Position numbers and translations under genes: made by a program. Under the pieces are notes generated by a model. The model had not been told where the DNA came from, searched no databases, and was given only the letters and a program-made list of their open reading frames with translations. A stretch of DNA of 64,000 nt from a virus. The stretch is taken from IMG/VR virus record IMGVR_UViG_3300027759_000080, positions 3,874 through 67,873 of that record. One strand, given 5' to 3'. Below are positions 1,402-48,419 of this stretch, piece by piece. Position 1 is the stretch's first letter; every line of letters starts with the position of its first letter.

Positions 1402-4400
1402 ATGGCACAGGACACCACAATTAACTCTTTTGAGGGCGGCTTAAATAAAGACGTAGCCCTAGTATCTTTACCCTCTAATCAATATGACGAGGCTAATGAT
1501 GTAGAATTTATATCTGATGAATTAGGTAAATTAACGACTTTAGAAGCTAAGAGAGGCACAGGACTAGCTAAGGTTACTGTTCCTAATGCTACTCCTCAAA
1601 CAATTATGTTTAGAGTAAGGACATATGCTGATACTGCACAAATATTAGGACAATACTATACCAATCAAAAGTTTGAATTTAAAGATGCTAATGGAGTTGT
1701 AGTAACAGGAGGCACAATTACAATAACAAACAGTAATCCTTATGTTACTAATTATGTTTTTGCATCAGACTTAACAACTGCTTTAGGTGGCAAGGGAACT
1801 GTTGCTGACAATGGTAATAATGATTTATTATATACAACAATTACATTAACATCTTCTAGTTACAATTCAGTAGTTAGCTGTACTCAAACTGCAACTTTAA
1901 ATGGAGTTGCCAACAACAAAATTAATGAACTTATTTTAATTAGAGAATTAATAACTACAGAAACTCAATTAGAGCCTATAGCTTATGTTAATAGTCAGAA
2001 TCTAGGCTTTGTATTAAGTGTAAGCGATGACAATACTATTACAGAAATTGGCGTAGCAGATGAAGATAACAACTGGGCTTACACAAGATTATTAAGAACA
2101 AAGAGCTTTGTAGTAAGTAAAACACAGCCTATTAAATTTATAGTAGAGCAGCAAAATGATGGAGTATATGCCCTGTACTTTACTGATAATACTATAAAAG
2201 ATAAATGTATATATGTTCCACCTGTCTTAACTCAGGATTGCTGTTTAGCATATAGTCCTACAAATATTCAAGTAGCAGGAAAGGGAATATATAATTTAGT
2301 TCAAACAAACGCACAAACTAATAGTCAATTAGTGAACAATATTGGATATGTCACTTATAAAAATACGCTACAAAGCGGTGGTGGCTTGCTTACAGGAGGA
2401 AAAAGATATGTGTGCAGGTTCGGGATAAATGGTTCTAATATAACTACTCAGTGGAGTATATTAAGCAATATTGTTCCTGTTATCTCTGCAAGTGCTGATA
2501 GTGGACTTGCATGGGTAAATACACAGGGAACACCTAACGGAATTCCTACAAGCAAACAAAATATATTAACAATTAACAATGCACAAGCAGATGTTTTTAA
2601 TTTTGTAGAATTAGGGGTAGTAAATTACGCAGGAGAAAACGCTACGTCTGGAGAATTGATAGGAAGGTTTGATGTATTGGCTGAAAGCTTTGATATTACA
2701 CACACAGGATTAGAGCAAACAACATTATTAGACGTTGTAAGCCTTATAGAGGCAGAGCCTGTCTTACTTAAGGTTAGGGATATTGAAACCAAGAAAAATA
2801 GATTAAATAGAGCTAATACTGTAACCGCTAACGAAGATGCTAAGTGGCAATCAATAGCTGAAAATGCAGTTGTTACTACTCAAAGGTTTTCAGACAGCCT
2901 AAGCAATACTGGTTTACTGCCTACATCAGGTGGCAATAGAAGATTTTATGGATACGGAGACAGCGTAGCAATGGGCATTATACCAAGTAGCGATACAAGA
3001 AATATAGAGAGAAAAATAGAATATGTCTCTCAAGTATCAGTTCCTCCGATAGTATCTCCACCTACTTATGTGTCAGGAGTTTATACTGTAACTGCTACTG
3101 ATAGCCCTTTATTACAAATAAATTTAACAGGTAAAGTAATAATAAAAACTAGCCCAACTATAATAAGTACATTTCCAGCTATTTGGGCTTACTATGACAC
3201 AACTTCTATTGTTTCTTTTAAGATAAGAAGGATAAGAGCAGGAGTTACTACTGATGTTATAAATGATGTTATTGACACAAGGTTAAGCACTCACGAATTT
3301 TTTGCATCAACAGATTTAAATAAAACTTATAATATTGAAACAAATGCTGGAGATTATATAGAATTTTGGTGGGGCGTTTATATAGGTAGTAACGAGATTG
3401 ATGTTGTAGATTTTTCATATATAAATATTAATCAGGCGGCAACAGCTTCTTCTACTCAATTTTCAGGCACACAAGTAGGAGAATATCAAATTCCATATAA
3501 CGTGGCAAACAGAGCTGGTTATATGCTATATGAGTACTACCTAACATATGTTAGATTTCATTTAAAGAATGGATATATAACAGCACCTTACCCTTTAGGA
3601 AAGTATTACATAGACAATGCTACTTATAAACGAGGATTAGTACAAATATTGCCATTAGACCCTACAATGCCATTTACAGATACAAGCACATTAGCTAGTA
3701 GAAAAGTATATAACTATGCTTTAAGCGTAGCTAATTTAGACCTTTTTTACGTTAAAGATGAATTATTAGGAGTAAGTTTTGAAAGAAGTGAGCCATTAAA
3801 TACAGTTATTGGAAGTGGTATATACCATAATGCAAGAGTAATAGATGGAGATGTTTATACTTCGGGGTATAATACTACAACAGGAGCTCCTTCAATTACT
3901 GATGCCAGAAGAAAGTTTGGTATATTTATTAGTAACGATTTAGATAACCAAGTTATAAAGTATAGCAAAGGCGATTATTTACAATTACTAGGAGTTCCAA
4001 GAACATTAGGTTCTAATGCTAATTATAAAAGTGGCAATAATAACATAGGGCTTATAAAAGAATTATTAGGAAGTGTAGAAATTGGAGGAGATGCAATGAT
4101 AGCTACTAAATGGGTTATTGAAGATAGTACAAGTGTAGACTTTAATTCGGTAGGAGATGTTATTTATAATACAACTGCAAATTTGTATTACAAACCTAGT
4201 ACCAGCATATTAAATAATGCTTATTCTAATTCTAAAGGAGTGGCGGTTTCAACAACAGGGTTTGTAAGAACTTCGGGTGGTACTAAGGAGGAAATAAATA
4301 CTTTCGTAGCGTTTTATATTAGACCTATTGATTTAAATACAGTAGATTATAAGAACTATAAGCCAGTTCCAACTGGAGAAATAGTAAGAATAACTTCATC

Positions 4401-5994
4401 AACTCCAGCTGTATTACCTGCTACTACAGTATATGGCGGAGATACTTATACTCAAAAAGTAATAAGAAAAGAGGCTGATTGGTATGTAGAGCCAAGTCCG
4501 TCAACTAAAATAGCGAGTAGTGTAATTACGTTTTATGCACAAAACAGATTAAATAGTCAATTGTTTTATACAAATACTACAGCACCAAAAGCAACATGGA
4601 ACTTGCAGGGAAGTAAAAGCTTGTATCAATACTTATTCCCATTTGCTAGTTCAAGCGAATTAGTAGATGAGCAACATAACTTTGACAAGTCTTACATAGG
4701 AGCAAATCAAGTAAATAGGATAGCCCCTTACAACCCTTTACTTCCATACCCTACAAGTAACCCAACAAGAATATATTACTCTGACGAGAAAGCTGTAGGA
4801 AGCTTGTACGATGCATACAGAAAGGTTAAACCATTAAACTTCGTAGACTTAGAATTACAGAACGGAGCTATATCAGCAATATATGATATTAGAGACGTGA
4901 TGGTAGTAATACAGCCTACATTCGTAGGAGCTATTCCTTACGCAGCCGATACTTTAATTCAGAGCGATAGCACAGCTAAAATATTAGTTGGCACTGGAAC
5001 TGTGTACAGTAATAGGGTATACCCATTATCAAGCTTTGGAACTAGCTTAAAGACAATGAGCTGTAAAGGGTACAACTCTAATGGTAACCCTCAGGTATAT
5101 TGGATGTCAGATGACTTTGCTAACTTTAATCGTTATGACTACAGTGGAGTTAAGATATTGAGTTCTGATAACAATATGAGAACTTGGTTTTTAAATAATA
5201 CAGTTAATATCAAGAACGAGTTTGATGTAAATATATACTACAACACTAAGAAGGAAGATGTAGTATTAACATCAAGAGCAGTTAAGGCTTTCCCTACATG
5301 GAATCCTGCAACAACTTACACTCCTTTTACTTATGTTTCATACGGAGCAGTAGGAAGATGGAAAAACTTTGAGCAGATTCCTTCTATATACGTTTCTAAT
5401 ACGACCAATACAAACTCTAATCCTTTTGATAATCCTGCTAATTGGGCTTATGTAGACCCTGCTAGTAGTACATTTTACAATATGTGGAGCTTAATCTTTA
5501 ACGAGAAAAGGAATAACTTCACTACATTTATGAGCCCTTTACAGAAGAGATACTTCAAGCATAATAACTTAGTTCTAACTCCTAGAGGAGTAGACGTTAA
5601 GGGTAATATCTATCAAATGGATAATGTAAATGGTAATTATTTGCAATGGTTTCCTTTAGCAGGAAATACAGACTTTAAATTAGGTAATTTTATTTTATCA
5701 ACCGTATTTAATAAGTTCGGAACAGACAGAAAAATGATTAATGTCAATTTTGAAAGAGGAGATGATGTTGCGGTACAGCCAACAACTGTAACAGCTATAA
5801 CACCAACACAAAGTGTAGATTTGCCAATTAACGAAACTAGATTAGGAGTAACTTACTACCCATCTTATTACGATAGTAATGGCGATACTCCTTACGGACA
5901 GTTCATTAAGATACTTATTAAGAAGGCTTCTTATTTGAAAATAAGGACTATAGCAATGAAATTCAAAAATAAATTCCCATTGAGGATGAAATAG
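1402..5994 (+). CDS. Tail stabilization/muzzle protein (P22 gp10-like, crAss-like)
   Basis: ~1530 aa; N-terminal 'NSFEGGLNKD', 'YGGDTY', 'TRIYYSD'; start moved to ATG 1402 because TATTTTTG (1389-1396) overlaps the GTG. Confidence 0.7.
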   Translation: MAQDTTINSFEGGLNKDVALVSLPSNQYDEANDVEFISDELGKLTTLEAKRGTGLAKVTVPNATPQTIMFRVRTYADTAQILGQYYTNQKFEFKDANGVVVTGGTITITNSNPYVTNYVFASDLTTALGGKGTVADNGNNDLLYTTITLTSSSYNSVVSCTQTATLNGVANNKINELILIRELITTETQLEPIAYVNSQNLGFVLSVSDDNTITEIGVADEDNNWAYTRLLRTKSFVVSKTQPIKFIVEQQNDGVYALYFTDNTIKDKCIYVPPVLTQDCCLAYSPTNIQVAGKGIYNLVQTNAQTNSQLVNNIGYVTYKNTLQSGGGLLTGGKRYVCRFGINGSNITTQWSILSNIVPVISASADSGLAWVNTQGTPNGIPTSKQNILTINNAQADVFNFVELGVVNYAGENATSGELIGRFDVLAESFDITHTGLEQTTLLDVVSLIEAEPVLLKVRDIETKKNRLNRANTVTANEDAKWQSIAENAVVTTQRFSDSLSNTGLLPTSGGNRRFYGYGDSVAMGIIPSSDTRNIERKIEYVSQVSVPPIVSPPTYVSGVYTVTATDSPLLQINLTGKVIIKTSPTIISTFPAIWAYYDTTSIVSFKIRRIRAGVTTDVINDVIDTRLSTHEFFASTDLNKTYNIETNAGDYIEFWWGVYIGSNEIDVVDFSYININQAATASSTQFSGTQVGEYQIPYNVANRAGYMLYEYYLTYVRFHLKNGYITAPYPLGKYYIDNATYKRGLVQILPLDPTMPFTDTSTLASRKVYNYALSVANLDLFYVKDELLGVSFERSEPLNTVIGSGIYHNARVIDGDVYTSGYNTTTGAPSITDARRKFGIFISNDLDNQVIKYSKGDYLQLLGVPRTLGSNANYKSGNNNIGLIKELLGSVEIGGDAMIATKWVIEDSTSVDFNSVGDVIYNTTANLYYKPSTSILNNAYSNSKGVAVSTTGFVRTSGGTKEEINTFVAFYIRPIDLNTVDYKNYKPVPTGEIVRITSSTPAVLPATTVYGGDTYTQKVIRKEADWYVEPSPSTKIASSVITFYAQNRLNSQLFYTNTTAPKATWNLQGSKSLYQYLFPFASSSELVDEQHNFDKSYIGANQVNRIAPYNPLLPYPTSNPTRIYYSDEKAVGSLYDAYRKVKPLNFVDLELQNGAISAIYDIRDVMVVIQPTFVGAIPYAADTLIQSDSTAKILVGTGTVYSNRVYPLSSFGTSLKTMSCKGYNSNGNPQVYWMSDDFANFNRYDYSGVKILSSDNNMRTWFLNNTVNIKNEFDVNIYYNTKKEDVVLTSRAVKAFPTWNPATTYTPFTYVSYGAVGRWKNFEQIPSIYVSNTTNTNSNPFDNPANWAYVDPASSTFYNMWSLIFNEKRNNFTTFMSPLQKRYFKHNNLVLTPRGVDVKGNIYQMDNVNGNYLQWFPLAGNTDFKLGNFILSTVFNKFGTDRKMINVNFERGDDVAVQPTTVTAITPTQSVDLPINETRLGVTYYPSYYDSNGDTPYGQFIKILIKKASYLKIRTIAMKFKNKFPLRMK

Positions 5995-21983: not shown

Positions 21984-22019
21984 AATGATTGATTGTTTTT
22001 TTTAAATTGTGATTGATTA
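21981..22019 (-). repeat. ~39-bp repeated translation-initiation leader (copy at 22245-22284)
   Basis: TAATCAATCACAATTT-A8/9-CAATCAATCATTATG in both. Confidence 0.85.
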
Positions 22020-22247
22020 ATTAATTTCTTCCTCAACTATGATATCATCAACGTAACAATTTACATTGTATTTGCCAATGTTTAAATGGTCAATGATAGC
22101 TTGAATTTGGGAGCAGTCGTCTTCTGCGCTCCATCCCTTGCCTAGAACAATTTCTGCTACATCCTCTAGATTGTTGCCATTCACGAATGCGTAAGTTGAA
22201 AAGTAATTACCTTCGATTGATTTTTTAATTTGATTTTTTGATTTCAT
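22017..22247 (-). CDS. Hypothetical protein
   Basis: Start moved to MKSKNQIK after the repeated leader. Confidence 0.6.
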   Translation of the reverse strand: MKSKNQIKKSIEGNYFSTYAFVNGNNLEDVAEIVLGKGWSAEDDCSQIQAIIDHLNIGKYNVNCYVDDIIVEEEIN

Positions 22248-22302: not shown

Positions 22303-22348
22303 AACATATGAGGGGAATCGAACCCCTCACTAGAACCATTTTTATGCT
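22303..22348 (-). ncRNA. tRNA-half-like T-loop element, copy 1
   Basis: AGCATA-AAAATGGTTCTAG-TGAGGGG TTCGATT CCCCTCA-TATGTT. Confidence 0.7.
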
Positions 22349-23249
22349 ATGCAAATGTGAATATTTTATTATCCACAGTATTCTCGGTAACAAACTTCAT
22401 TACCTCATCGAATGCTATGTTATTCATGCGATAACCACCACCACTAACTAGGTAATGTAACTTATCATTCTCATCCTTTGGCGCACTAACGTGGTTTGTG
22501 TAACGTGTAACGGCATTAAATAATCCCCATATAGTCTTACCTTCCAAATTAATTTCAGTTTGTAAGGAATCAGCAAAAGCGGTCACTTGATTTAGCTTTC
22601 TACTGCTTACATCTTTCTTATTAGTGTTAACATCAATAGTGAATAGTTTTCTTATCACACGTTCCACCATCTCATCCTTTAGCTCGATGTCAGCCATCTT
22701 CTTGAAGTTACCCATCAATACTTCATCTAGATGCAAAGCCTTTCTTAAATCAGCCATGGCAGTCTCAATTCTACTCTTTGCTGATTCAGTGTGACGGAAC
22801 TTATCTAAATCTTTGTATGCACGATGGAAAGTATTTTTGCATACTACTACTTGACTAGTTGACCCGAATCCGATTGATGCACTGCCATCATTAGAATTCA
22901 AGGCAGTAATCCATCTCATGATAGATGACTTCCCGATGTACATACTAGGTAAAGCGGCTTGTAAGTATACCTTCTTACCTCCATCTAGTTCACCTCCTCT
23001 AGTAGTCTCTAAACCGATGCCCTCGGTAGCTCCTACGATGGTTTCTGCTAACTCCCAATTCTGCATTGGCACATAACGATTACCTACACTTCCTAACCAT
23101 GCATCAGTATCGTTTCTGAAGATACCAAATGTCTCGGTGTTTTTACCATCTTTAGCAAATAACTCTTCTTTGCTTACTGACCAATTTAAATTAGTGCTTT
23201 CTAATAAATTAAAAGTCTTTTCTTGGATTGATTGATTGTTGTTTTTCAT
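22347..23249 (-). CDS. DUF932-like phage/plasmid protein
   Basis: 'LNWSV', 'LGSVGNRYVPMQN', 'NSNDGS', 'VVCKNT', 'WGLFNAVT.Y..H'. Confidence 0.8.
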   Translation of the reverse strand: MKNNNQSIQEKTFNLLESTNLNWSVSKEELFAKDGKNTETFGIFRNDTDAWLGSVGNRYVPMQNWELAETIVGATEGIGLETTRGGELDGGKKVYLQAALPSMYIGKSSIMRWITALNSNDGSASIGFGSTSQVVVCKNTFHRAYKDLDKFRHTESAKSRIETAMADLRKALHLDEVLMGNFKKMADIELKDEMVERVIRKLFTIDVNTNKKDVSSRKLNQVTAFADSLQTEINLEGKTIWGLFNAVTRYTNHVSAPKDENDKLHYLVSGGGYRMNNIAFDEVMKFVTENTVDNKIFTFA

Positions 23250-23267
23250 GATTTTTGTTATTTAATT

Positions 23268-23324
23268 GTTTAAGACAAGGCTTTTTAAACCTTGTTTCGA
23301 TTATTTAAATCTCGTCAGTTAAAC
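23268..23324 (-). ncRNA. Type I hammerhead ribozyme
   Basis: GTTTAA CTGACGA GATT-TAAAT-AATC GAAA CAAGG-loop-CCTTG TC TTAAAC; all core nucleotides and three stems. Confidence 0.9.
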
Positions 23325-23485
23325 TATTGTACATTGTCTCGATAATAGTTAGCTATGCTTATTACTTCCAATGCTAACTGCTCGTTAGACATCTTTGCCA
23401 AGCTAACTACATCTTGTACTGTTTCGAATTCGTCAGATGCCAAATCCATGATGGCATCAATTAATTTTTCTCTGATTGTTTCCAT
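23324..23485 (-). CDS. Small hypothetical protein (53 aa), not in ORF track
   Basis: METIREKLIDAIMDLASDEF...; stop abuts hammerhead. Confidence 0.6.
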   Translation of the reverse strand: METIREKLIDAIMDLASDEFETVQDVVSLAKMSNEQLALEVISIANYYRDNVQ

Positions 23486-23490
23486 GGTGT

Positions 23491-23778
23491 TTATATGCTT
23501 TTTAAATCTTTGTGATACTTATATAAAATTGCTTCGCTTGAATCGTAGCTAAGATGTGTGGCATCCTTATTTATCCTATCTCTTGATGATGGATAGTCAT
23601 CTTCTCTTTTAATGCTTCTAATAGCATTACGCATATCCTTTTTTGCATCTGCTACACTGCTATAATTTAGCCAAATGCAATTGAACATCCCATCCTTTTT
23701 ACTTTCGTAATTTGACATCTTTGATAGTATCTTGAAGTTACCACCGATTTGACCCGTAATTAAAATTTGTGCTCTCAT
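23491..23778 (-). CDS. Hypothetical protein
   Basis: 95 aa ORF. Confidence 0.6.
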   Translation of the reverse strand: MRAQILITGQIGGNFKILSKMSNYESKKDGMFNCIWLNYSSVADAKKDMRNAIRSIKREDDYPSSRDRINKDATHLSYDSSEAILYKYHKDLKSI

Positions 23779-23947
23779 GATTTAATTGTCTCCTATTTTA
23801 ATAATTGAATAATAACCATCAATGAATTCATTGTTACATGAATCGAATTGATAGTACTCTTGTACTCTTGCTTGTGCCAATTCCAATGTAGGAAATGCGC
23901 TGATAATACTGCCATTTGCAGTGTTTTGAATGATGTAATTTGTCATG

Positions 23948-24277
23948 CTATTTAATTGATTTTTTAGGTTTGATAAAATATGCTCCGTTTGGACTGTAGA
24001 CTTCGTAATTCATAGCATCTGCTATTCTAGTTAAATCTAGCAGTCTCTGAGCAATCTGCTGAGGAAGAAATGAGTACTTCGTACCTACATTCCACTGCTC
24101 TTTTTTACTGCTCTGCTCCTCTAGGCATTTGTACTTATTGAATTGCCATTCCAATTCACATTTTAATTCTCTAGCATTCTCGCAGTCATTTATTATACGT
24201 TCTGCAAACTTTGTTGATGCCAATGATGGACTGTTTTTTAATCTTAAGAAAGATTCCTTTTGAGTGATTGTTTTCAT
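23948..24277 (-). CDS. Hypothetical protein
   Basis: 109 aa with CAATCAATCA leader. Confidence 0.6.
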   Translation of the reverse strand: MKTITQKESFLRLKNSPSLASTKFAERIINDCENARELKCELEWQFNKYKCLEEQSSKKEQWNVGTKYSFLPQQIAQRLLDLTRIADAMNYEVYSPNGAYFIKPKKSIK

Positions 24278-24315
24278 GTTGATTGATTGTTTTTTTTAGT
24301 GATTAATTAATTGAT

Positions 24316-24603
24316 TTATTGTGAGCACAAGTCCCATGACTCTAGCTCGTTTACTCTTTTAACATTTAAGCCTAATTCCTTATAAATAAAATTAGCTAAT
24401 TTAGTATTACCTACAGTGCCTTCAGCTATCTGATTTGTGCCTATAGATGCTACAACGTCTGAAGTGCTCATGCCTAATATTCTACTGCAAAATTTAACAT
24501 CTTGCCCTAAGAAGAATTGTTTGACATATTTTTTGTTTCTGACTACTAATGACCAATTATGACAAAAGCCATATTCCGTTGTGATTAAGATTGTTTTCTT
24601 CAT
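24316..24603 (-). CDS. Hypothetical protein
   Basis: 'FFLGQDVKFCSRILG'. Confidence 0.6.
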   Translation of the reverse strand: MKKTILITTEYGFCHNWSLVVRNKKYVKQFFLGQDVKFCSRILGMSTSDVVASIGTNQIAEGTVGNTKLANFIYKELGLNVKRVNELESWDLCSQ

Positions 24604-24627
24604 GATATTTATTTATTTAATTGTTTG

Positions 24628-24671
24628 AGCATAGCATGGGAATCGAACCCATGCCTTGAACCATTTATGCT
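24628..24671 (-). ncRNA. tRNA-half-like T-loop element, copy 2
   Basis: AGCATA-AATGGTTCAAG-GCATGGG TTCGATT CCCATGC-TATGCT. Confidence 0.7.
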
Positions 24672-25568: not shown

Positions 25569-25597
25569 AATGATTGATTGGTTTTTTATGTGATTGG

Positions 25598-25647
25598 TTA
25601 GCCAATAGATGAATCGACATCTGATGAATTCCAAATTAATTGGCTAA
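25598..25647 (-). ncRNA. tRNA-half-like element, divergent copy 3
   Basis: TTAGCCAAT-linker-AGATG TCGATT CATCT-ATTGGCTAA then CCA. Confidence 0.5.
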
Positions 25648-25954
25648 TATATTTTATTAATGGTCAAAATAAGTTTATTGTTAGTAAACTTATAAAAACA
25701 TCATGGTATATCCCCTCCATGATAGGTTTATTCGATTGATTCGTAGTCTATTATACGATATCAGTATCTGTTTTCAACTGTATTTCAGTGTTTATTGGTT
25801 TAGAGTCGTAAATGATTCACATTATATAGATTCGGCAATGTTTCACAACAAACTAACTATATAAAACTACTCAATGATTAGTATCTTTATACATATACAT
25901 ACTAATTGACTAAAAGAACGATATTTTCGAGAATTTTTCGGCTTGAAAACATTG

Positions 25955-25984
25955 GCAATATACGAGCACATTTTATAAATGCAA
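25955..25984 (-). promoter_or_regulatory. Candidate early promoter TTG-N19-TATATTGC
   Basis: Near-consensus -7 box with correct spacing. Confidence 0.5.
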
Positions 25985-26023
25985 GCACTAATCAAGATGA
26001 AATTATAATTATTTTTCAAGTGA

Positions 26024-26653
26024 TTGATTATCAAGATGATTATTTTTAGTATAATTCAAGATAATAATGCAAGTGAATGATAATGAGGGGAATAAAATAT
26101 ACTGCTGATAATCAATGATATAGCAAGTAGTATTCAAGAATGAAAACTAAATAGCTGAAAATGAGCACTATAAGTTAATAAACTGAATGTGAGATGTTTA
26201 CATTACTGAAAATGAGCACAAAATATAAAGATATTAGGCTAAAAAATCACTAAGGATAAAAGGATAATTATAATGCTTACTGATAAGAATAATAACATCT
26301 ATAGTAACGGAATATTTATGATGACCATGTTTAACATTAGATAGGAATGCATAAGGCAATTCACAGTCTTTAGCTATTCGATAGTATGTAATGCCTTTAC
26401 TAACACATAGTGAGTCTATCCATCGAATGAATAGCAAATGTGCCTTTAAACGATTGGCATTCCGTATTTCATATGTAGTATTATCGTTTTTGATGTGCAA
26501 TGATAAGGATATTTTGACGTTATTAGTCATTTAAAGGGCTAAAAAAACTATGCTCTCAAAAACTTGTCTCCATCCCATGAGCAATTGGCATTTTGCATCT
26601 TATAATCAGCAAGTTATATTTTGAAGATGATTTTGTAAATAGCTGATTATCAT
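26024..26653. repeat. Cluster of degenerate palindromes (C/T)TGA-N3-T(C/G)A(A/G)
   Basis: Copies at 26024, 26077, 26105, 26155, 26183, 26206, 26599, 26643. Confidence 0.65.
26234..26530 (-). CDS. XRE/Cro-like HTH regulator
   Basis: 'GITYYRIAKDCELPYAFLSNVKHG...TIDVIILIS'. Confidence 0.65.
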   Translation of the reverse strand: MTNNVKISLSLHIKNDNTTYEIRNANRLKAHLLFIRWIDSLCVSKGITYYRIAKDCELPYAFLSNVKHGHHKYSVTIDVIILISKHYNYPFILSDFLA

Positions 26654-39716: not shown

Positions 39717-42700
39717 ATGCCAGAAGGAATAGACAAGGGATTATTAGAAGAATACATAGCAACTGCAAATAGCGGTAAATACAAATCAATGGCAGAAGTT
39801 AATGCCAAATTTCCAGAGCTAAAAGACTACAGCCCAGATTTATTAGAGGAGTATGTTGCCACTGCAAATAGTGGTAAATATAAGACTCTTGACGAAGTAA
39901 ATTCAAAATTTCCAGAATTTTCAACATCAAAAACTCCTGCTGTTCCATCGTTCTCAACAGATATGTCAAATACAAATACATTACCTGTAATGAAGAACTC
40001 TCCTCTACAGGCAAATGTAGACAAACCTGTAAAAGTAGTAGCACCGACATACATTGACCCTACAAAAGTTTTAAAAACTAAAGACGTTGTAGATATAAAT
40101 GCAGAAAAAGCTCCAAAGACAATGGCTCAAATTGACGAGGAGAGCAGGATTACTATGCAGAACAGAAATATCTTTACGCTTACGCAGAGAGGTTTAGACG
40201 AAAGTATTGAATACCAAAACTTATTAGTAAAAAAACTGGCAAAGGAATTAGGCTACACTGACGACAATTCCTTAAAAGGAACTACTGCTGTTCAAAAGTT
40301 AGCTAATGACAGACAAGAAGGATGGAAAGAAGATTATTTAGAACCAGAAGAACTAGCTCAAGTAAGAGCTTTTGAAGACTACGAAGTATTTAAAGAACAA
40401 GGGAGAGAAAAAGAATCAAACGAGGCTTTACAAAAATATTTAAACAGCAGGACTGAGTACAGAAAAAAAATAGACAACGATATAGTAGATTTAAAAGGAG
40501 AACTGGTTTCAGCAGAAGGTGATGATGCAGTATTAATAAGGGCAACCATTGCCGAGCTAGAGGCTAAAAAACTTCCTTTTTATGACCCTAAAAAGCAGAT
40601 GGAATCATTTTTAACAGAAAATGAGACAGATGTAGCAGCAGTGTCTAAACCTACAGAGACGGCTCAAGAAAAATTAAAAAAATATATACTTGCACAAGAT
40701 AATCTTGTAACTAATTTAAGAAATAGACTTGGAATTACTGGTAAAAACAATAGCTTTCAAAGGTTTACAGATGAATGGAAAGTACTACAAGGAGACAGAA
40801 GACAAAAAGATGATTTAGAACTTCTTCATAATACAGAATTAAAAATAAAGAATGCTGTTCAGATACTTGAATTAAATAGAACCCCTTTAGACAAAGACAG
40901 TGCGTGGGGCGTACTTGCTAAAGAATTTGTTGGAGAACTGATTCCTATGAAGAAAGGTTTTAGTGGAGTAGACAATACGATAGCTGCAAATATTGGCAGT
41001 ATAGTTAGGGACGCAGATATAACGTATGCCGCAAATGAAAAGCAAGTACAAACAGCTGAATTTGCTAGTAATCAATATCAGTTTGGTAGTGCAAAGTGGG
41101 TTTCTCAAAATTTAGCCCCAACACTAGCTATTATGGTCGAAATGATACCAGCGACATTGCTTACGGAAGGCTTAGGGTCGACTGGATATTTATCAAGACT
41201 AAGTAGACCTTTAAAGATTTTAGCAGAAAGAGGTAGCCTAGGTAAAGCTGGAGGAACTTTTTTTAAAGTAATACAGGCAAATAAATATGGTCGTGGTTTA
41301 TTAAAAGCTGCCGCCAGTGGTGTTAATTACGGTATAGAAAGTCAAGCAGTTACAATGCTTGCTCCTCAATTAAAAGATGAGATGGGCTTTTCTAATGGTT
41401 TATTTGCAGGGACTGTTGGTTCGATAGCTGGTCAGCTTACTGGTAAGGTAATGGAGACTAGTTTAAAGTCTATCGCTACATTATTTGGCAATAAAGCTCC
41501 ACAGGCAATTGCTGCAATAGAAAAATACGGTTCGGTAATAGCTAAAGCTAAAGAATTTAGTAATACAGTTGCAGGGGAAACTGTTGAGGAGTATGGAGAG
41601 CAATTAATGAGTATATATAAAGAAAGTGATAACTATAAAAACTTTATATATAATCTTAAGAAGCACTACGAGACCACTGACGCTTTAGAAGAGTTTGCTA
41701 CTATATTAATGATGTCGGTAGGAGCTCCAGCAGGTAGCACTTTAGGCAAAAGTTTATTTAGTGCAAGTAAAAAAGCATATAATAACCTTAGCAGAAAAGA
41801 AAGAGAAACAGCTAGTAGAATGGCGGATGAAATTCATAATGAAGTTAATCTAGCTATGGATGATGCCGCTAATCAAACTATAAGAGACGAAAATATACAA
41901 GTTCCAACTAGAAGTAATGAAGAGCAAGACAACGCTATTCTTCAAAAGCAAAAAGATTTAAAACTTCCTACAGCTCCTGAAGTAGTATTATCTGATGTTA
42001 GTAAGGCTGCCATGGCTAAAATGGAGGGTGGAGAAGCTCTGACTATTGAGGAGCTAAAAGAACTTAGTAATGAGCTTTATCAAAGATATAACGGTATATC
42101 AGCAACAAAAGACCAAGATAATAGACAGTTTACTACAGAACAAATAAACGAAACTTTAATCAAGCTAGAAAATAATATTACTTTATTAGAAAATAGTAAA
42201 AATAAATTAGAAGAGTCTGGAGAGGCTAGTATTGTTGTAAATCCAAATGAGGCAGTTACACAGGACGCTAAACCTGTAACAAGTACACCTAATACTAAAT
42301 TTTATCAAGGTGTTGATTTTAGAGCACAAACAGGGTTACCTAACGGTGACTACACAGAAGAACAAGTAAAGGCAGCTAGAGAGGCTAAATTAAAGAAAGA
42401 AGGCGTAACGCCAGCAGAAATAGAAACAATAAATGCAGAAGAAGAAATTATACCAGCAACTGAAACCCCTGCTGCACCAATTAGCGGTGTTAGTGGTGAG
42501 GTACAGGCATCTGGTGATGTAGAACAAACAACAGCTAGCGAGAATGAGGTTAAAGCCGAAGAGATAAGAAACAAACTAGATAAACTTACAGAAGGATTTG
42601 TAAATGATGGCAAAACTGAAAAAGAAGCAGAAGACTTAGCTTTTAAATCTATATCAGAAGAAGAAAAGCAAGTATTAAGAGATAGTTATAACGAATCAAG

Positions 42701-45700
42701 AAACCAACCAAAAACTAAACAAAATGATAAAGAAAACGGAACAGGGGTACAAAGTAACATCGGAGAAGGGCAAGAACCTATCAAAACCCAACCTATCGAA
42801 ACCACAGGCGGAGAAAAGATTGAAGCAAGTGGAAATGTTCAAGCATCTGAAGAAGAAGTAGTTAAACCAATAGCAGACCAAATAGAAGAGTTAAGGGTTA
42901 AAGAGAAGGCAGAGTATGATGCTATGCCTAATCAAAAAGACGATGCTAAAAGAGAAAAGATTTATGAAAAGTACAACGCCTTAATCACTCCTTTACTAGA
43001 ACAGCAAAAAGAAGAAATTAAGCAGGCTGAAAAAACCACAAGTGTGTATGTAGCTCCTTTTTACGATGCAACTGTCAAGGATATTAAAGAGGTTAAAGAT
43101 ATAGAAAAGTCTCCAGCGTATAAGAAATACATAGAAACCATGTATTCTGCGGCAGAAGCTCTTGGAATTAAAATAAAGAAAACCGTTGGAAACCTAGGTA
43201 AATACACTCACGATACAACAGGAATAGAAATAAGTGAAATATCAACTTTAGTAGAATTAGAGACAGACGATATAGAAAAAGCTACAGAATTTGCTGTATT
43301 AATGGGAGCACTTGCTCCTGAGGTTCAAGAGTCTACAATTTCGGCACAGGTTTTGAGTGAAGATGAAATAACTCCAGATAGACATACAGCTGATTTCCAT
43401 AACATAAAAGTTGACAATATAAAAGAAGCAGTAGAAATAGCAGCTTTATCAGGACTAGACCACACCATAATAGTAGCTGATAATGTTATTCAAATAATAT
43501 CGTTTAAATACTGGAGTGTTGAAGAAAATGACGAATTTGACCAAAAAGTAGAAAATTTAATACAAAAATTAAAAGAAAAAGGAATAAATTATGAAACAAA
43601 CACAAAAGCAGTTGAATCAAGATTCATTACAGCCAGCCCCTCAGAATTCACCCCTTATAACAGAGAGGACATCATCAGAAGAATGGAAGAAAAGGTCGGC
43701 AAGAACGATGGAGATACTGGGCTCGAAAAGGGACTTCTCAGACGCAGGCAAATGCTTCGTGATGCCATTCAAAATGCGAAGATAAGAAACAATGAATTTC
43801 TAAGACAGGAAAAGCTTGCTTCGGAAAGAGCCGAGTATGGCAAACTCAGAACAAAGCAAATTGAGCTAGAGAAAAATGGAGAAAGGCTATCAGACGAGGA
43901 AGTTAAAAGATTTACCGAGCTTCTTAATATCCTTATCCCTTCTACTCAAGAAACCATTAGAAATGCATCAGAAGACTACGAAGAGGCAAGAAAAGAACTT
44001 GAAAAAGTTGCCGCTAAGGTGATAGGCGACTTAGGTTTTTTATCTACTTTTGGAATTAAAAGAGCCGAAAGAGCTGCTACTAAGATACTTAGATGGTATA
44101 AAGGTAAGGCACAATGGCTTGGTGATGGTGCTAGAACAAACTTAATTGCTTACAATGAGAAGGACGTAATGGTTCTTTATAAAAAATTACAAGCACAGTT
44201 TAAGGGCGGTATAATAAGACTTGAAAAAGACCCTACTGAATTAGGATACCCTAAAAAACTTCTTGAGGTAAGAACCTCAAACGGTAAAATCGCTGAGTTT
44301 CAAGTAATGACACCTGAAGGCTATTTAGCCAAGGATGGTATTAATGGTTTTCCAGAAGAAAAAAGAGATTTTGCTGCTAAAGAGTTAGCTAAAATACAAA
44401 AAAGATTAGGTTGGTTAATACCAGATGGTGTTGGACATTATTTTTACGAGATAGAAAGAGATTTTAATGTACCTACAGACCTAAGAGAAAGAGCCAAGGC
44501 TATTAGTTTAAAATACTACAATGCATTCCTTAAAGCTGATTCAAAGTATACTGAAAAAGAATTTTTAGATGAGATTTCTCAGTTTAAGAAAGATGTTGAT
44601 GCTGCTGATAAGACAAATTGGGACAAGGGTAATAATGGAATATCTCCAGTAACTGTTAATGACTTTATAGAAGATACAAATAATCAATACGAGCCTATAA
44701 CAGTATCAGACACTAGTCACGATACATTTACCAAGGACAATGCTATAGACTACGAAGAAGATGAAAAGGAAGGTGATAACGGACGTTCTTATACCTATTT
44801 AGCATCGGTAACTGTAAGCTTAGTAGATGACGTTAGTGGCGAAACTATAGGAAGTATTACCAAACTAAAAGATGAGTATGGGGATGTTACTTGGAGTGCT
44901 GAGGATTCTGATGGTAGCGAAGTAGCTGACAATGTCGGCACTAAAAACGAGGCTCAAAGAGCTCTTGTAGAACAACATAACAAGCAAAAAGCAAAGGAGT
45001 TTAATAAAGAAAAAGCTAGGGGCATTAAGGAAAGAACTAAGCAAAGAGCTATAGAAGCAGAAAAAGCTGCAAAAGCTAAGGAAAAAGCTGAGAAAGAATC
45101 TGAAAAAGAAAAGGCTGAAAAAGAAAAAGCTGAAAAAGAAACTGAAAAAGCTAAACCAGAGCAAACTGAAAAAGAAAAGGCTAAAGAAAAAGCCAAAGAG
45201 GCTCTAAGAGCTAAAGCTGCTGCGGTTAATGCTGAGGTTGTTAGTGCCGCACAAAGAGTTCAGCAGGCTTTAGAGGCAACAGGAATAACTGTAGAAGTAA
45301 TTGATAACGAGAAAGATTTCCAAGATAAACTTGATGCTGAAGGAGTTAAAAGAGATAGCTCAGTTGGAGCTAGCGGAGTATTTATATCTAAGTCAGGTAA
45401 AATATTTATTAACGCAAGCAAGGTTGATGCCAAGTGGGGTAGTGTAGATGTATGGCACGAGGGAACTCACCCTATTATTAACATAATAAGAAACACAAAT
45501 CCTAAGTTATATAAGTCAATTATAGACGGACTAAACGAGCTAGTTGCTAGTAATCCTGAAATAGCTGCTGTTGTTGAGTGGGCACAAAGTAATTACGAAG
45601 GCGAAAACACTTTAGAGGATGAAACTATAACTGAAACCATAGCAAGAATAGCTAACGGAAATATAGACCTGTCAAAGATACCTACATCATTAAGAGACAA

Positions 45701-48419
45701 GATAATAGATTTCATTAACGGAATTGCCAAGTCTCTAGGATTAAAGCCCATGTTGAAAGGTTCTAATATCGCTACGTTCAAGAAGATGGCAAAAGAAATA
45801 TCTGCCGCACTTAAAGAAGGTAAAGATATTAGTAGCATAGTTGGAATGGACAATGTTAAAAACTTTGAAAATTTAAGAAATGAAGACGGAAGTGATTTTG
45901 ACCAATTTAAGATTTCAAATAAATTTAGAAATTTAATCAGTGGAATTACCTTTGAGTATGAATCTGATTCACAAAATTTTAAAGACTTAGTAAAGAAAGA
46001 TAAGATTACAAATAATAAAGTACTAAGTGATTTTGAGGATATGTTCGTGATGCTCCATGTACCTGATAATGCGTTTACTGGTTTTATATATAAAGATGGA
46101 GAAATATTAGTTGAAGGCAAGGGAGGTGTTTATTTCCCAATTAAATTTAATAAGGAAGGGTATTTCTGGGCTTCAACAGAGGCTGGAGTAGATAAGCTTG
46201 TAGATGTATTAAACAAGACAAGAGCTGCTAATAAAGATAAAGATGGTAAGGTAAGACTTGCATTAATATCTTCTAGAGCTCAAAAAATAATGTCTTCAAC
46301 AAATGCTTCAAATAATATGATTGAAATATTATTTTCTAAAGCATTTGACAAAAGAGCTAGACTAAGCGAGGCTCAAGTAAAGAGAGCTATATTTAATGCG
46401 TCAAATGAAATTCAGACATTATTTCAAGAAGATTATGATAAAAAAATAAAGGATTTAGAAAATAAAATAAAATCTGCTGACAATAAAATAAAGAAGAAGA
46501 TAGAAGTTAGTAAAAACGAAAAAGAAAAACGCAGTGCAGAAAAAAGCTTAAAATCCGCAAAAGCAAGCGGTGCTGTGCAAGCTCCTGTATTTAATCTTAA
46601 AGAAAGTGCTGATTCTTACATGTCAAAACTAGCTATTTTTAACAATGTAGACAACTCTTCTTTTGAAGAAAGAAAACTTTTTAATGAACTTACTTTAAAA
46701 AATATTAGAGATTTAATAAATGAAGAAGACGATAGATTAAATAAAGGAGACAAAAAGAAAGAAAGACAAGTTGCTCAAGAAATCCTTACATTTTTAGGTC
46801 AGGGTAAAGAAAGCATTAAGTTTAAAACGTCTGGAGGAAGACTTTCTACAGCCAATTTAATTGCTGGGTTTTCTGATTTATTAGGAGAGCCTACGCTAAA
46901 AGGAGAAAATTCAAATAATATTTATGCTATACTAGAAATAGATACAGATGTAGAGAAGGTAAGAATAGATGATGCACATGGTTCTTATCCATTTGCAGTA
47001 AAAGGTAAAGAAGGTTCTAGTATTGTTTTGCATATATTGCAAGATAGAAGAAATTGGCAGCAAAGTGTGTTAGACCCTGAAACCAATAAGCCTATAGGTG
47101 AAGAGGAGATAATTGATGAAGAAACTGGAGAGCCTAAGACTTATGAAAAAAGAATAGCAGAAATACTGCCACCAACAGCTGGAATAACTTTTGAGCCTAT
47201 AAAAATATCTACTAAGAGCCAACCTCAATTATCAAAAGGTAATAGAGGCAAGACAGGTAAGCCTATTAATTGGGAGCAATCAAAAGAAGGTAAGGGCGAC
47301 CCTAGTATATCTTCAAGAAATTCAATAGTACAAGAAGCTGCTAAAAACTTAAAAGAAGGTAAAATTACAAACGAAGAGTACAGGGCAACAGCTTCAGAAA
47401 ATAGCCCAATCAGAGCTATAACTAGATTTTTTAACCCAGCTACACTCCAAGAAATTAGAAATGCATTTGCTGCTGGTACAAAAAAAGATACAGAGGCGGA
47501 AAATATAAACAAGCCAGTTAAAGAAGGAACGAGAGTTGGATTAAGACTAGACATTCCAAGTTATAAGTTTAATAATACTTGGGTTGTTTCTATTCATGAG
47601 GGGTTTACAAAAGCTGGAAAAATTCTTTCATATAGCAATGTTGCTAAAATAAAAAATGTATCTTTTGAACCAGTTCCAGAAGCGGCATTAAACATAGCCA
47701 CTGGTGATAAGACAAAATCTTCAGTAGCAAGAATGTATGGCGAATGGCAAAACATTCAAGGCGGAACAATGAAAGAGCGTGGTGAAAACGCCAAGAAAAT
47801 GGTTCAGGATATTGTTAACGACCCTAACTATGTACAGGTTGGAATGAATCCATTTAGACAGTCTTATTTTTACGATAGAAGCAGCGATATTGGTAGACCA
47901 ATAAAGTCGGCAGATGAAGTAATTCAAATTGGAGGTTTAGTATATGCTAAAAACCCTGTGTACGGCAACTGGACAGATGAGGCGTATAGAGTAAAAGGAC
48001 TATTAGATGCAAATCAAAATCCTGTACAATTCTCAAAAGGAGGCAGAGATGTTCAGCCTGTTGTTGATATGATTAAAGAATCTCAGAACGAAGGTGAGTT
48101 AACTGACAAAGAAATAGCTGAAACTTTAGAAGATTATTTTCCTAAGGAAGATATTCAGGCGGCATTTGATTTAATAAATAACCCAACTGAAAATGAATCG
48201 CCAACTACTACCACAGAGCAAGCAGAGTTTACTCCAAACGTCAAAGACATAGAATCATTTAAGAAGATACTAGGAACTACAAGTGGCGCTATTAGAAACA
48301 AGAACATAGCTGAAGCTGTTAAAGTAAATCCTAAAGTTCAAGAAATCATGGATAACTTTGAAGAGCTAAAGAAACAATTGATGGCAAGCGTAGAGCTGAC
48401 CGAAGATTGTAGTTGGTAA
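39717..48419 (+). CDS. Giant polyvalent protein with RelA/SpoT-like nucleotidyltransferase and zincin-like domains
   Basis: 'IKRAERAATK...DGAR...GY...EFQVMT' (~44050-44315); 'WHEGTH' (~45455). Confidence 0.75.
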   Translation: MPEGIDKGLLEEYIATANSGKYKSMAEVNAKFPELKDYSPDLLEEYVATANSGKYKTLDEVNSKFPEFSTSKTPAVPSFSTDMSNTNTLPVMKNSPLQANVDKPVKVVAPTYIDPTKVLKTKDVVDINAEKAPKTMAQIDEESRITMQNRNIFTLTQRGLDESIEYQNLLVKKLAKELGYTDDNSLKGTTAVQKLANDRQEGWKEDYLEPEELAQVRAFEDYEVFKEQGREKESNEALQKYLNSRTEYRKKIDNDIVDLKGELVSAEGDDAVLIRATIAELEAKKLPFYDPKKQMESFLTENETDVAAVSKPTETAQEKLKKYILAQDNLVTNLRNRLGITGKNNSFQRFTDEWKVLQGDRRQKDDLELLHNTELKIKNAVQILELNRTPLDKDSAWGVLAKEFVGELIPMKKGFSGVDNTIAANIGSIVRDADITYAANEKQVQTAEFASNQYQFGSAKWVSQNLAPTLAIMVEMIPATLLTEGLGSTGYLSRLSRPLKILAERGSLGKAGGTFFKVIQANKYGRGLLKAAASGVNYGIESQAVTMLAPQLKDEMGFSNGLFAGTVGSIAGQLTGKVMETSLKSIATLFGNKAPQAIAAIEKYGSVIAKAKEFSNTVAGETVEEYGEQLMSIYKESDNYKNFIYNLKKHYETTDALEEFATILMMSVGAPAGSTLGKSLFSASKKAYNNLSRKERETASRMADEIHNEVNLAMDDAANQTIRDENIQVPTRSNEEQDNAILQKQKDLKLPTAPEVVLSDVSKAAMAKMEGGEALTIEELKELSNELYQRYNGISATKDQDNRQFTTEQINETLIKLENNITLLENSKNKLEESGEASIVVNPNEAVTQDAKPVTSTPNTKFYQGVDFRAQTGLPNGDYTEEQVKAAREAKLKKEGVTPAEIETINAEEEIIPATETPAAPISGVSGEVQASGDVEQTTASENEVKAEEIRNKLDKLTEGFVNDGKTEKEAEDLAFKSISEEEKQVLRDSYNESRNQPKTKQNDKENGTGVQSNIGEGQEPIKTQPIETTGGEKIEASGNVQASEEEVVKPIADQIEELRVKEKAEYDAMPNQKDDAKREKIYEKYNALITPLLEQQKEEIKQAEKTTSVYVAPFYDATVKDIKEVKDIEKSPAYKKYIETMYSAAEALGIKIKKTVGNLGKYTHDTTGIEISEISTLVELETDDIEKATEFAVLMGALAPEVQESTISAQVLSEDEITPDRHTADFHNIKVDNIKEAVEIAALSGLDHTIIVADNVIQIISFKYWSVEENDEFDQKVENLIQKLKEKGINYETNTKAVESRFITASPSEFTPYNREDIIRRMEEKVGKNDGDTGLEKGLLRRRQMLRDAIQNAKIRNNEFLRQEKLASERAEYGKLRTKQIELEKNGERLSDEEVKRFTELLNILIPSTQETIRNASEDYEEARKELEKVAAKVIGDLGFLSTFGIKRAERAATKILRWYKGKAQWLGDGARTNLIAYNEKDVMVLYKKLQAQFKGGIIRLEKDPTELGYPKKLLEVRTSNGKIAEFQVMTPEGYLAKDGINGFPEEKRDFAAKELAKIQKRLGWLIPDGVGHYFYEIERDFNVPTDLRERAKAISLKYYNAFLKADSKYTEKEFLDEISQFKKDVDAADKTNWDKGNNGISPVTVNDFIEDTNNQYEPITVSDTSHDTFTKDNAIDYEEDEKEGDNGRSYTYLASVTVSLVDDVSGETIGSITKLKDEYGDVTWSAEDSDGSEVADNVGTKNEAQRALVEQHNKQKAKEFNKEKARGIKERTKQRAIEAEKAAKAKEKAEKESEKEKAEKEKAEKETEKAKPEQTEKEKAKEKAKEALRAKAAAVNAEVVSAAQRVQQALEATGITVEVIDNEKDFQDKLDAEGVKRDSSVGASGVFISKSGKIFINASKVDAKWGSVDVWHEGTHPIINIIRNTNPKLYKSIIDGLNELVASNPEIAAVVEWAQSNYEGENTLEDETITETIARIANGNIDLSKIPTSLRDKIIDFINGIAKSLGLKPMLKGSNIATFKKMAKEISAALKEGKDISSIVGMDNVKNFENLRNEDGSDFDQFKISNKFRNLISGITFEYESDSQNFKDLVKKDKITNNKVLSDFEDMFVMLHVPDNAFTGFIYKDGEILVEGKGGVYFPIKFNKEGYFWASTEAGVDKLVDVLNKTRAANKDKDGKVRLALISSRAQKIMSSTNASNNMIEILFSKAFDKRARLSEAQVKRAIFNASNEIQTLFQEDYDKKIKDLENKIKSADNKIKKKIEVSKNEKEKRSAEKSLKSAKASGAVQAPVFNLKESADSYMSKLAIFNNVDNSSFEERKLFNELTLKNIRDLINEEDDRLNKGDKKKERQVAQEILTFLGQGKESIKFKTSGGRLSTANLIAGFSDLLGEPTLKGENSNNIYAILEIDTDVEKVRIDDAHGSYPFAVKGKEGSSIVLHILQDRRNWQQSVLDPETNKPIGEEEIIDEETGEPKTYEKRIAEILPPTAGITFEPIKISTKSQPQLSKGNRGKTGKPINWEQSKEGKGDPSISSRNSIVQEAAKNLKEGKITNEEYRATASENSPIRAITRFFNPATLQEIRNAFAAGTKKDTEAENINKPVKEGTRVGLRLDIPSYKFNNTWVVSIHEGFTKAGKILSYSNVAKIKNVSFEPVPEAALNIATGDKTKSSVARMYGEWQNIQGGTMKERGENAKKMVQDIVNDPNYVQVGMNPFRQSYFYDRSSDIGRPIKSADEVIQIGGLVYAKNPVYGNWTDEAYRVKGLLDANQNPVQFSKGGRDVQPVVDMIKESQNEGELTDKEIAETLEDYFPKEDIQAAFDLINNPTENESPTTTTEQAEFTPNVKDIESFKKILGTTSGAIRNKNIAEAVKVNPKVQEIMDNFEELKKQLMASVELTEDCSW
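42724..42861 (+). CDS. Nested +1-frame basic protein (45 aa)
   Basis: MIKKTEQGYKVTSEKGKNLS...AEKRLKQVEMFKHLKKK; leader AAAACTAAACAAA-ATG. Confidence 0.6.
   Translation: MIKKTEQGYKVTSEKGKNLSKPNLSKPQAEKRLKQVEMFKHLKKK

Follow-up and report, generated by a model that had tools for sequence, protein, structure and literature searches.

Two copies of a transfer RNA (tRNA)-like element lie between short genes in a 64,000-nucleotide (nt) stretch of viral DNA, positions 3,874 to 67,873 of IMG/VR virus record IMGVR_UViG_3300027759_000080, which we refer to throughout as the window. From comparative analysis we propose, with a probability of roughly 0.6, that this element is a tRNA-like cleavage signal at which host RNase Z and/or RNase P cut the polycistronic early messenger RNA (mRNA). 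It belongs to a widespread and apparently undescribed family of phage RNAs, and the proposal follows from the finding that its members share their slots between genes with self-cleaving ribozymes. One such ribozyme is situated between the two window copies:

22303..22348 (read 22348 to 22303), minus strand: tRNA-like copy 1, AGCAUA-AAAAUGGUUCUAG-UGAGGGG-UUCGAUU-CCCCUCA-UAUGUU
23268..23324, minus strand: type I hammerhead ribozyme, intergenic and flanked on either side by a tRNA-like copy, matched by Rfam Hammerhead_1 and RAGATH-1-hammerhead in a permissive scan
24626..24671 (read 24671 to 24626), minus strand: tRNA-like copy 2, AGCAUA-AAUGGUUCAAG-GCAUGGG-UUCGAUU-CCCAUGC-UAUGCU

Structure of the two window copies

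Both copies are built on one plan, with an outer stem of 5–6 base pairs (bp), a linker of the form AAUGGUUCNNG, an inner stem of 7 bp and a UUCGAUU T-loop. Copy 1 differs from copy 2 in a linker that is longer by two A residues and in one G.U pair in the outer stem, and the spacing from stem to stem is just 11–13 nt. A preliminary description of this DNA had listed the outer stem, the linker, the loop and two inner stems of different yet paired sequence, and all of these are present; it had left the strand unstated, and this is the minus strand, which is the coding strand of the region. The T-arm word GGTTCGATTCC, allowing at most one mismatch, occurs twice in the window where 0.16 occurrences are expected (at least two in none of 100 shuffles), and the entire 67,873-base genome from which the window was taken contains only these two copies. 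When the 5' part alone was used as a looser pattern, its matches were no commoner than chance (10, with 10.3 expected). The z-scores for single-sequence folding are modest (-1.89 and -2.17), and the outer stem is part of the minimum-energy fold in copy 2 only. Both copies touch the end of a gene: the first two bases of copy 1 are overlapped by the UAG stop of a DUF932 gene, and in copy 2 the UAA stop of the upstream open reading frame (ORF) is within the 5' strand of the element, its last base being column 9 of the model described below.

A covarying RNA family

A search pattern in which the linker and T-loop were fixed and both stems were left free retrieved 25 viral loci. Among the 19 distinct copies obtained in this way, whose stems are very divergent, 97.2% of cells are paired and 11 of the 13 pairs show compensatory changes, the remaining two being fixed by the search pattern itself. 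The covariation score of this alignment was matched by none of 500 shuffles, and register-shift controls brought pairing down to 42–53%. A covariance model, R1, was built from alignment A2, from which window copy 1 and the pattern match in locus L017 were left out, the former because its 2-nt insertion was misplaced by MAFFT and because it was reserved as a test. R1 recognized the left-out copy 1 with 58 bits (E 2.8e-13) and copy 2 with 69.2 bits (E 1.7e-16), and it added further copies with divergent linkers in loci already known. The resulting set comprises 40 distinct copies drawn from contigs of viruses, prophages and metagenomes; pairing extends to 97.9% of its cells and compensatory changes to 12 of 13 pairs, in an alignment that is fitted to R1 and hence biased toward the structure. 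The eleven core pairs of these copies include ten G.U or U.G cells and not a single unpaired cell, which is consistent with an RNA read from the coding strand. Covariation among homologues had been proposed in advance as the test of the fold, and it proved strong; the preliminary picture of an acceptor-like stem and a T arm with a D-loop-like GG and no anticodon arm is thus backed by 40 distinct homologues.

The conserved features are few. The T-loop is constant, and so is a stack of 12 bp (5 + 7), with a thirteenth pair in 32 of the 40 copies. Divergent copies keep only UGG or CGG in the linker, 4–6 bases into its 11 nt, and the other linker positions vary, as does its length. The 3' tail follows the form N-C-N-A, with the C in 35 and the A in 33 of 41, and true CCA is found in no more than three of the 41.

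The prokaryote genome records with good copies carry the labels Flavobacteriaceae, Bacteroidales, Proteiniphilum, Amycolatopsis, Methylococcaceae, Lachnospiraceae and Clostridia. A looser pattern listed 80 metagenome loci, of which about 23 have a model match at E <= 1e-6. Four of the genome pattern matches were identified as the 3' ends of transfer-messenger RNA (tmRNA) of Thermomicrobiales and others were attributed to chance; L017 and several genome matches at 30 bits or less were excluded. Searches of a phage collection by blastn, with a 7-kilobase (kb) region and with the 55-nt element, gave no match, and no cultured phage carrying the element was found there; tblastn with the DUF932 protein against the same collection retrieved only relatives of less than 60% identity. 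No description of the motif was found in the literature searched or in Rfam 15, with the proviso that the 2015 RAGATH paper or its supplements may mention it.

Relation to tRNA, tmRNA and other RNA classes

The T-arm consensus (G53 UUCRAUU C61) appears as GGUUCGAUUCC in both window copies, where it caps a 12 bp acceptor/T coaxial stack. The stack has the length of that in a tRNA and is split 5–6/7, not 7/5. The motif typical of t-elements, in which a GGTTCRANYCC T-arm and an acceptor-like stem are embedded in a precursor of mRNA (PMC1920247), is also present.

ARAGORN reported no tRNA genes in the window, and the Rfam tRNA model gave no match at its gathering threshold in the window, nor at E <= 10 in the region. 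Two homologous copies were called by ARAGORN, as tRNA-Leu (L013) and tRNA-Phe (L003/L010/L023); these calls were rejected, as the Rfam tRNA model makes none. A comparison with Rfam, suggested in the preliminary description as a check on novelty, left the element without a match even at E <= 10, RAGATH families included, other than one of 17–18 nt to the T arm alone of the tmRNA model RF00023 (model positions 346–363; 14.4–15.2 bits against a gathering threshold of 47). Among the described RAGATH families the sole match at E <= 10 was that of RAGATH-1-hammerhead to the neighbouring hammerhead and not to the element. RAGATH-type RNAs are recognized by their recurrence beside small ribozymes (hammerhead, twister or pistol) or as their substitutes, and the element behaves in this way toward hammerhead and pistol ribozymes, in numbers too small for a claim of enrichment. 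Weak minus-orientation matches to 'Plastid-ycf2' and to a small nucleolar RNA (snoRNA) were discarded as chance or antisense T-arm matches.

Identification as a tmRNA was rejected on the grounds of the variable acceptor-like stem, the lack of a conserved G.U pair, the C-N-A tail and the restriction of the RF00023 match to the T arm. An intrinsic terminator was also rejected: the 3' tail of the element is CAAACAAUUAA, and there is no terminator-like site at either window copy.

Exchange with self-cleaving ribozymes

The hammerhead at 23268–23324 has a complete core (CUGACGA ... GAAA ... GUC) and three stems, stem I being GUUUAA/UUAAAC, and is predicted to cut after GUC; folding gives the three-way junction. 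It nevertheless falls under the curated cut-offs of Rfam, with 29.7 bits for Hammerhead_1 (gathering 34; E 1e-4 locally and 0.0028 window-wide) and 36.9 bits for RAGATH-1-hammerhead (gathering 56.3). Covariation is seen in stems II and III across four distinct homologues, and the ribozyme begins on the final base of the UAG stop that closes ORF 23324–23485.

The clearest evidence for a shared slot comes from relatives retrieved via the DUF932 protein (L026–L030). The site directly 3' of the DUF932 stop holds the tRNA-like element in the window, L028 and L029, and a type I hammerhead in L026, L027 and L030, in which DUF932 is 98% identical. The segment exchanged extends from the DUF932 stop codon up to a leader common to both arrangements, AAACAAUUAA. 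More distant DUF932 loci are uninformative, an intrinsic terminator following the gene in L031 and an overlapping gene in L032.

Ribozymes accompany the element in unrelated lineages as well, always on its strand. In L038, from a Clostridia genome, three successive gaps hold a pistol (66.1 bits, gathering 34.5), a hammerhead that was read by eye and folded, and the element. L016 has a type II hammerhead (37.4 bits, gathering 37), L123 a type I hammerhead with a stop codon within stem I, and L024 an additional type III hammerhead. A hammerhead scanner found none in element-free loci and none in reversed-sequence controls; AT-rich scanner matches in L062 and L095 are doubtful and were left uncounted. 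The scanner under-counts, since it missed the L016 type II and L038 hammerheads.

Three other RNAs were noted in these loci. A 48-nt RNA at L057:2421–2468 (plus strand) forms a three-way junction from an 8 bp outer stem and two short hairpins, and fills the slot upstream of an ArdC gene that in the relatives L053 and L056 is taken by the tRNA-like element; the folded surrounding stretch of 106 nt has a z-score of -3.15, and no Rfam match was found at E <= 1. At L005:3117–3199 (minus strand), adjoining a tRNA cluster, the Rfam tmRNA model is matched from end to end (60.4 bits, gathering 47) by an RNA of 83 nt that lacks the entire mRNA and pseudoknot body. Its acceptor stem of 7 bp includes G3.U70, its D-loop analogue is of the tmRNA type, a T arm is present, and ARAGORN makes no call there. 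It looks like a phage mini-tmRNA reduced to the tRNA-like domain. Near the tRNA-like copies of L002 there is a weak match to the manA RNA motif (2738–2973, minus strand; 30.9 bits, gathering 55.2; E 3.5e-4).

Position relative to genes

The element is co-directional with its flanking genes in every case, and its position is tied to the gene upstream. The stop codon of the upstream co-directional ORF has its end within model columns 1–10 in 27 of the 40 copies, with its last base in columns 1–4 in 19 and in columns 9–10, inside the 5' strand, in eight; in 12 more it ends 1–15 nt upstream, and in one no upstream ORF was found. Expressed differently, in 39 of 40 copies the stop ends no more than 18 nt upstream of column 4, the first base that is always paired, or inside the element. 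The distance from the element to the next start codon is far more variable. Viral records contain one to four copies each, all on one strand and spanning about 0.7–3.2 kb.

We found no single flanking gene family common to the loci. ArdC occurs beside the element in two lineages, DUF932 in the window, and DUF7178, DUF3164 and a capsid gene elsewhere; the other flanking genes are mostly small and familyless. Elements are situated at mosaic boundaries where the flanking genes change. In L013 (5496–5544, minus strand) the element, which ARAGORN mislabels as tRNA-Leu, follows a Mu-like major capsid gene and not an early gene. Columns 7–9 of the model, that is, the two final bases of the outer stem's 5' strand and the first of the linker, read UAA, UGA or UAG in 23 of the 40 copies, and this triplet is used as a real stop in just eight; in copy 2 it corresponds to window positions 24665–24667.

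The element as a proposed cleavage signal

We suggest that the element is transcribed within a polycistronic early mRNA, where its 12–13 bp coaxial helix with a canonical T-loop cap would mimic the top half of a tRNA and the GG in the bulged 11-nt linker could act as G18–G19 of a D-loop. Measurement by RNase P starts at the elbow and proceeds along the T/acceptor stack, and a T-loop and elbow on a stack of tRNA length, which the element reproduces, are what tRNA end-processing enzymes read; MALAT-1, Men-beta and tmRNA have been named as RNase P substrates (PMC4919913). Host tRNA end-processing endonucleases would cut the message between genes at the element, which would do the job of the hammerhead and pistol ribozymes in neighbouring and homologous slots. 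Given that a hammerhead can substitute for the element, and that the element recurs in arrays of ribozymes, the function they share is most simply RNA cleavage between genes, and the spread of the element over host phyla points to a universal host factor or enzyme. Of the three functions put forward in the preliminary description, that of an RNase P/Z substrate fits best, on the indirect evidence of a slot shared, and once swapped, with self-cleaving ribozymes. An antiterminator is unsupported, there being no terminator or U-tract for it to oppose, and the third, a decoy for tRNA-targeting nucleases, is considered with the alternatives below.

A 3'-side cut of the RNase Z type, after the discriminator-like base, is favoured over a 5'-side cut, although we infer side, enzyme and cleavage alike. 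After such a cut the upstream mRNA would end in the element as a 3' structure, and the leader of the next gene would be freed; RNase P may make a second cut, on the 5' side. The 3' side is preferred because a 5' cut by RNase P would hit stop codons, because the ribozymes that abut stops (type I hammerheads and pistol) have their predicted cut on the 3' side, and because in the L003 lineage a small hairpin begins 3 nt past the element, as expected of a protected new 5' end.

A similar arrangement was noted in L053, L056 and L057 (for example at L053:2172–2200), where every element is followed by exactly 3 nt (C-N-A) and a 4–6 bp hairpin, and then by UAACACAAAC and a Shine–Dalgarno site; this hairpin may be a protective 5' hairpin of the downstream mRNA.

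Several points weigh against cleavage by tRNA-processing enzymes. Were RNase P to cut at the base of the stem, the upstream stop would be lost or truncated in 15 of the 40 copies, its last base being at columns 9–10 in eight and at column 4 in seven. The element encodes no CCA, a 3' RCCA being of help in a bacterial RNase P substrate, its helix is split 5–6/7 where that of a tRNA is split 7/5, and no assay of such a substrate was found in the literature. The hammerhead-bearing L026, L027 and L030 are near-identical, so that the swap counts as one evolutionary event, and the leader AAACAAUUAA was rejected as proof of a common cut site because it is also present at gene starts without any element, including one in L123. 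The association with ribozymes is also sparse: in the 80 metagenome loci the hammerhead scanner returned one clean and two doubtful matches, all in element-bearing loci and too few for a claim of enrichment, and Rfam-level ribozymes were seen in just two of about 30 non-window loci scanned.

Alternative explanations

The element might instead be a trans-acting small tRNA mimic, excised or accumulating, that serves as a decoy or sponge for a host factor binding the acceptor/T half, with cleavage as a mere release route. Conceivable targets are toxins directed at the acceptor end, the CCA-adding enzyme, TruB/TrmA and EF-Tu; anticodon nucleases are not among them because the element has no anticodon arm. 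The mimicry of the T-loop and GG is near perfect, several copies may be present in a genome, and neighbours of the anti-restriction type (ArdC in two lineages, DUF932 here) would suit such a role. A decoy does not explain, however, why a hammerhead takes the same site in near-identical phages, and its acceptor-like stem has no conserved sequence, G3.U70 or CCA. These points weaken the decoy proposed in the preliminary description, and we consider this account unlikely.

A little less credit is due to the view that the element stays uncut and acts as a structured 3' end or insulator, stalling 3' exonucleases or coupling its folding to termination of the upstream ORF; the CCA-adding enzyme may then tag it after another nuclease has acted. 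It abuts or contains a stop codon, as a structure in a 3' untranslated region would, and a stable 12–13 bp helix with a C-N-A tail is in keeping with this. A plain hairpin would suffice for that purpose, though, and this reading accounts neither for a T-loop and a linker GG that are conserved from phylum to phylum nor for the swapping of the element with self-cleaving ribozymes.

It is improbable that the element represents a small self-cleaving ribozyme of a new class, with the T-loop/GG tertiary contact as its scaffold. This would account for the sharing and exchange of slots, as the genetic contexts are the same as those of hammerhead and pistol, and no Rfam family matches; shared gene context with ribozymes is reportedly how pistol, hatchet and twister-sister came to light. 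Outside the T-loop, however, divergent copies keep only UGG or CGG, and a linker that varies in sequence and length fits a mimic of the tRNA elbow better than a catalytic core. Least credible of all is a relic of a tRNA gene, an attP-type tRNA fragment or a DNA-level signal (hairpin promoter, replication or recombination site), for although the T-arm sequence is the same as in real tRNAs, the elements lie at mosaic boundaries and ARAGORN called two copies as tRNAs, those calls were unconfirmed by the Rfam tRNA model, the 5' strand and linker keep a fixed geometry with compensatory changes in unrelated phages, G.U is tolerated solely on the coding strand, the orientation always follows the genes, and multiple copies per record fit a relic poorly.

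Comparison with known systems

The closest precedent for the proposed cleavage signal is provided by the t-elements of plant mitochondria. These too have a non-canonical tRNA-like fold, with a conserved T-arm and an acceptor-like stem, within mRNA precursors; their GGTTCRANYCC arm directs RNase Z/P cuts at mRNA ends, and at their borders lie 5' and 3' termini of mRNAs that are ascribed to RNase Z and RNase P (PMC1920247). They are organellar, about 74 nt long, degenerate cloverleaves and each idiosyncratic (PMC1920247). The phage element, by contrast, forms a uniform family of 46–49 nt, has no D or anticodon arm and is exchanged with ribozymes.

In mitochondrial tRNA punctuation and at 3' processing signals of the MALAT1/MEN-beta mascRNA type, RNase P and RNase Z set the ends of RNAs at tRNA or tRNA-like folds that lie between coding or functional RNAs or follow them, and stop codons can abut the cut. 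Those signals are full or near-full cloverleaves in eukaryotes, whereas the phage element is a two-stem mimic in viruses of bacteria. The tRNA-like domain of tmRNA and the tRNA-like modules of bacterial Y RNA (YrlA) also lack an anticodon arm and combine an acceptor stem and T arm with a GG-bearing D-loop analogue that has no stem. However, tmRNA possesses G3.U70, CCA and a large body that contains pseudoknots and an ORF, and the phage element matches it in the T arm only; YrlA has a Ro-binding stem, which the element lacks. The C4 RNA of P1 and P7 and the CI RNA of P4 are matured by RNase P, which also cuts polycistronic mRNAs of Escherichia coli. These substrates are single, lineage-specific and devoid of a T-loop/GG elbow mimic, in contrast to the cross-phylum family described here.

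With respect to gene context, the nearest parallels are the ribozymes of prophages. Tandem hammerheads flank ardA in prophage polycistronic RNAs (PMC3088659). Like these and the pistol ribozymes, the element lies between short genes of the early or anti-restriction type, several per operon and co-directional. Unlike them, it has no known ribozyme core or Rfam RAGATH match and presumably needs a host enzyme. The RAGATH concept is that of RNAs sharing gene contexts with ribozymes.

The question of what role hammerhead, twister and pistol ribozymes play in bacteria and in phages is an old one. The occurrence of a ribozyme and a ribozyme-free tRNA mimic at one site in near-identical phages, and of mixed arrays of pistol, hammerhead and mimic elsewhere, suggests that the ribozymes simply sever polycistronic early transcripts at the gaps between genes, a job that phages can delegate to the tRNA-processing enzymes of the host. 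If so, the element would be to phages what tRNA punctuation is to mitochondria, in the form of a cross-phylum RNA family absent from Rfam. It may also prove useful as a marker of early or anti-defence cassettes, such as those with ArdC or DUF932, and as a compact host-dependent part for RNA processing.

Genomic context

The window has a G+C content of about 34% and encodes a terminase and a portal protein. Short minus-strand genes follow one another across 18.5–26 kb, and those around the tRNA-like copies, together with the non-coding stretch upstream, are as follows.

22017..22247, minus strand: small gene downstream of copy 1, its start, an ATG past an A-rich leader, set by comparison with relatives
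22347..23249, minus strand: DUF932 gene, 300 amino acids (aa), Pfam PF06067 at 8.4e-30, phrog_1221
24316..24603, minus strand: gene downstream of copy 2, 95 aa
24665..25081, minus strand: ORF upstream of copy 2, 138 aa, no family match, its last codon and stop (GCA UAA) within copy 2
25570..26230, minus strand: long non-coding stretch of about 660 nt upstream of the operon

The DUF932 gene is thus flanked by the hammerhead on its upstream side and by copy 1 on its downstream side. In front of the 95-aa gene the element is retained in L004, L014 and L015 despite a different upstream gene. The stretch at 25570–26230 is probably the early promoter/operator region of a leftward early transcript that would carry all three elements; it includes a 21-nt direct repeat (26148–26168 and 26199–26219), and the best sigma-70-like matches of the region are at 25777–25750 and 25848–25821, in a number not above that in shuffles.

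Two very large ORFs in other parts of the window, at 39717–48419 (plus strand, 2900 aa) and 1402–5994 (plus strand, 1530 aa), have no PHROG match at 1e-5, and a 1242-aa ORF that neighbours the large ones (49077–52805) gives a weak DarB-like match.

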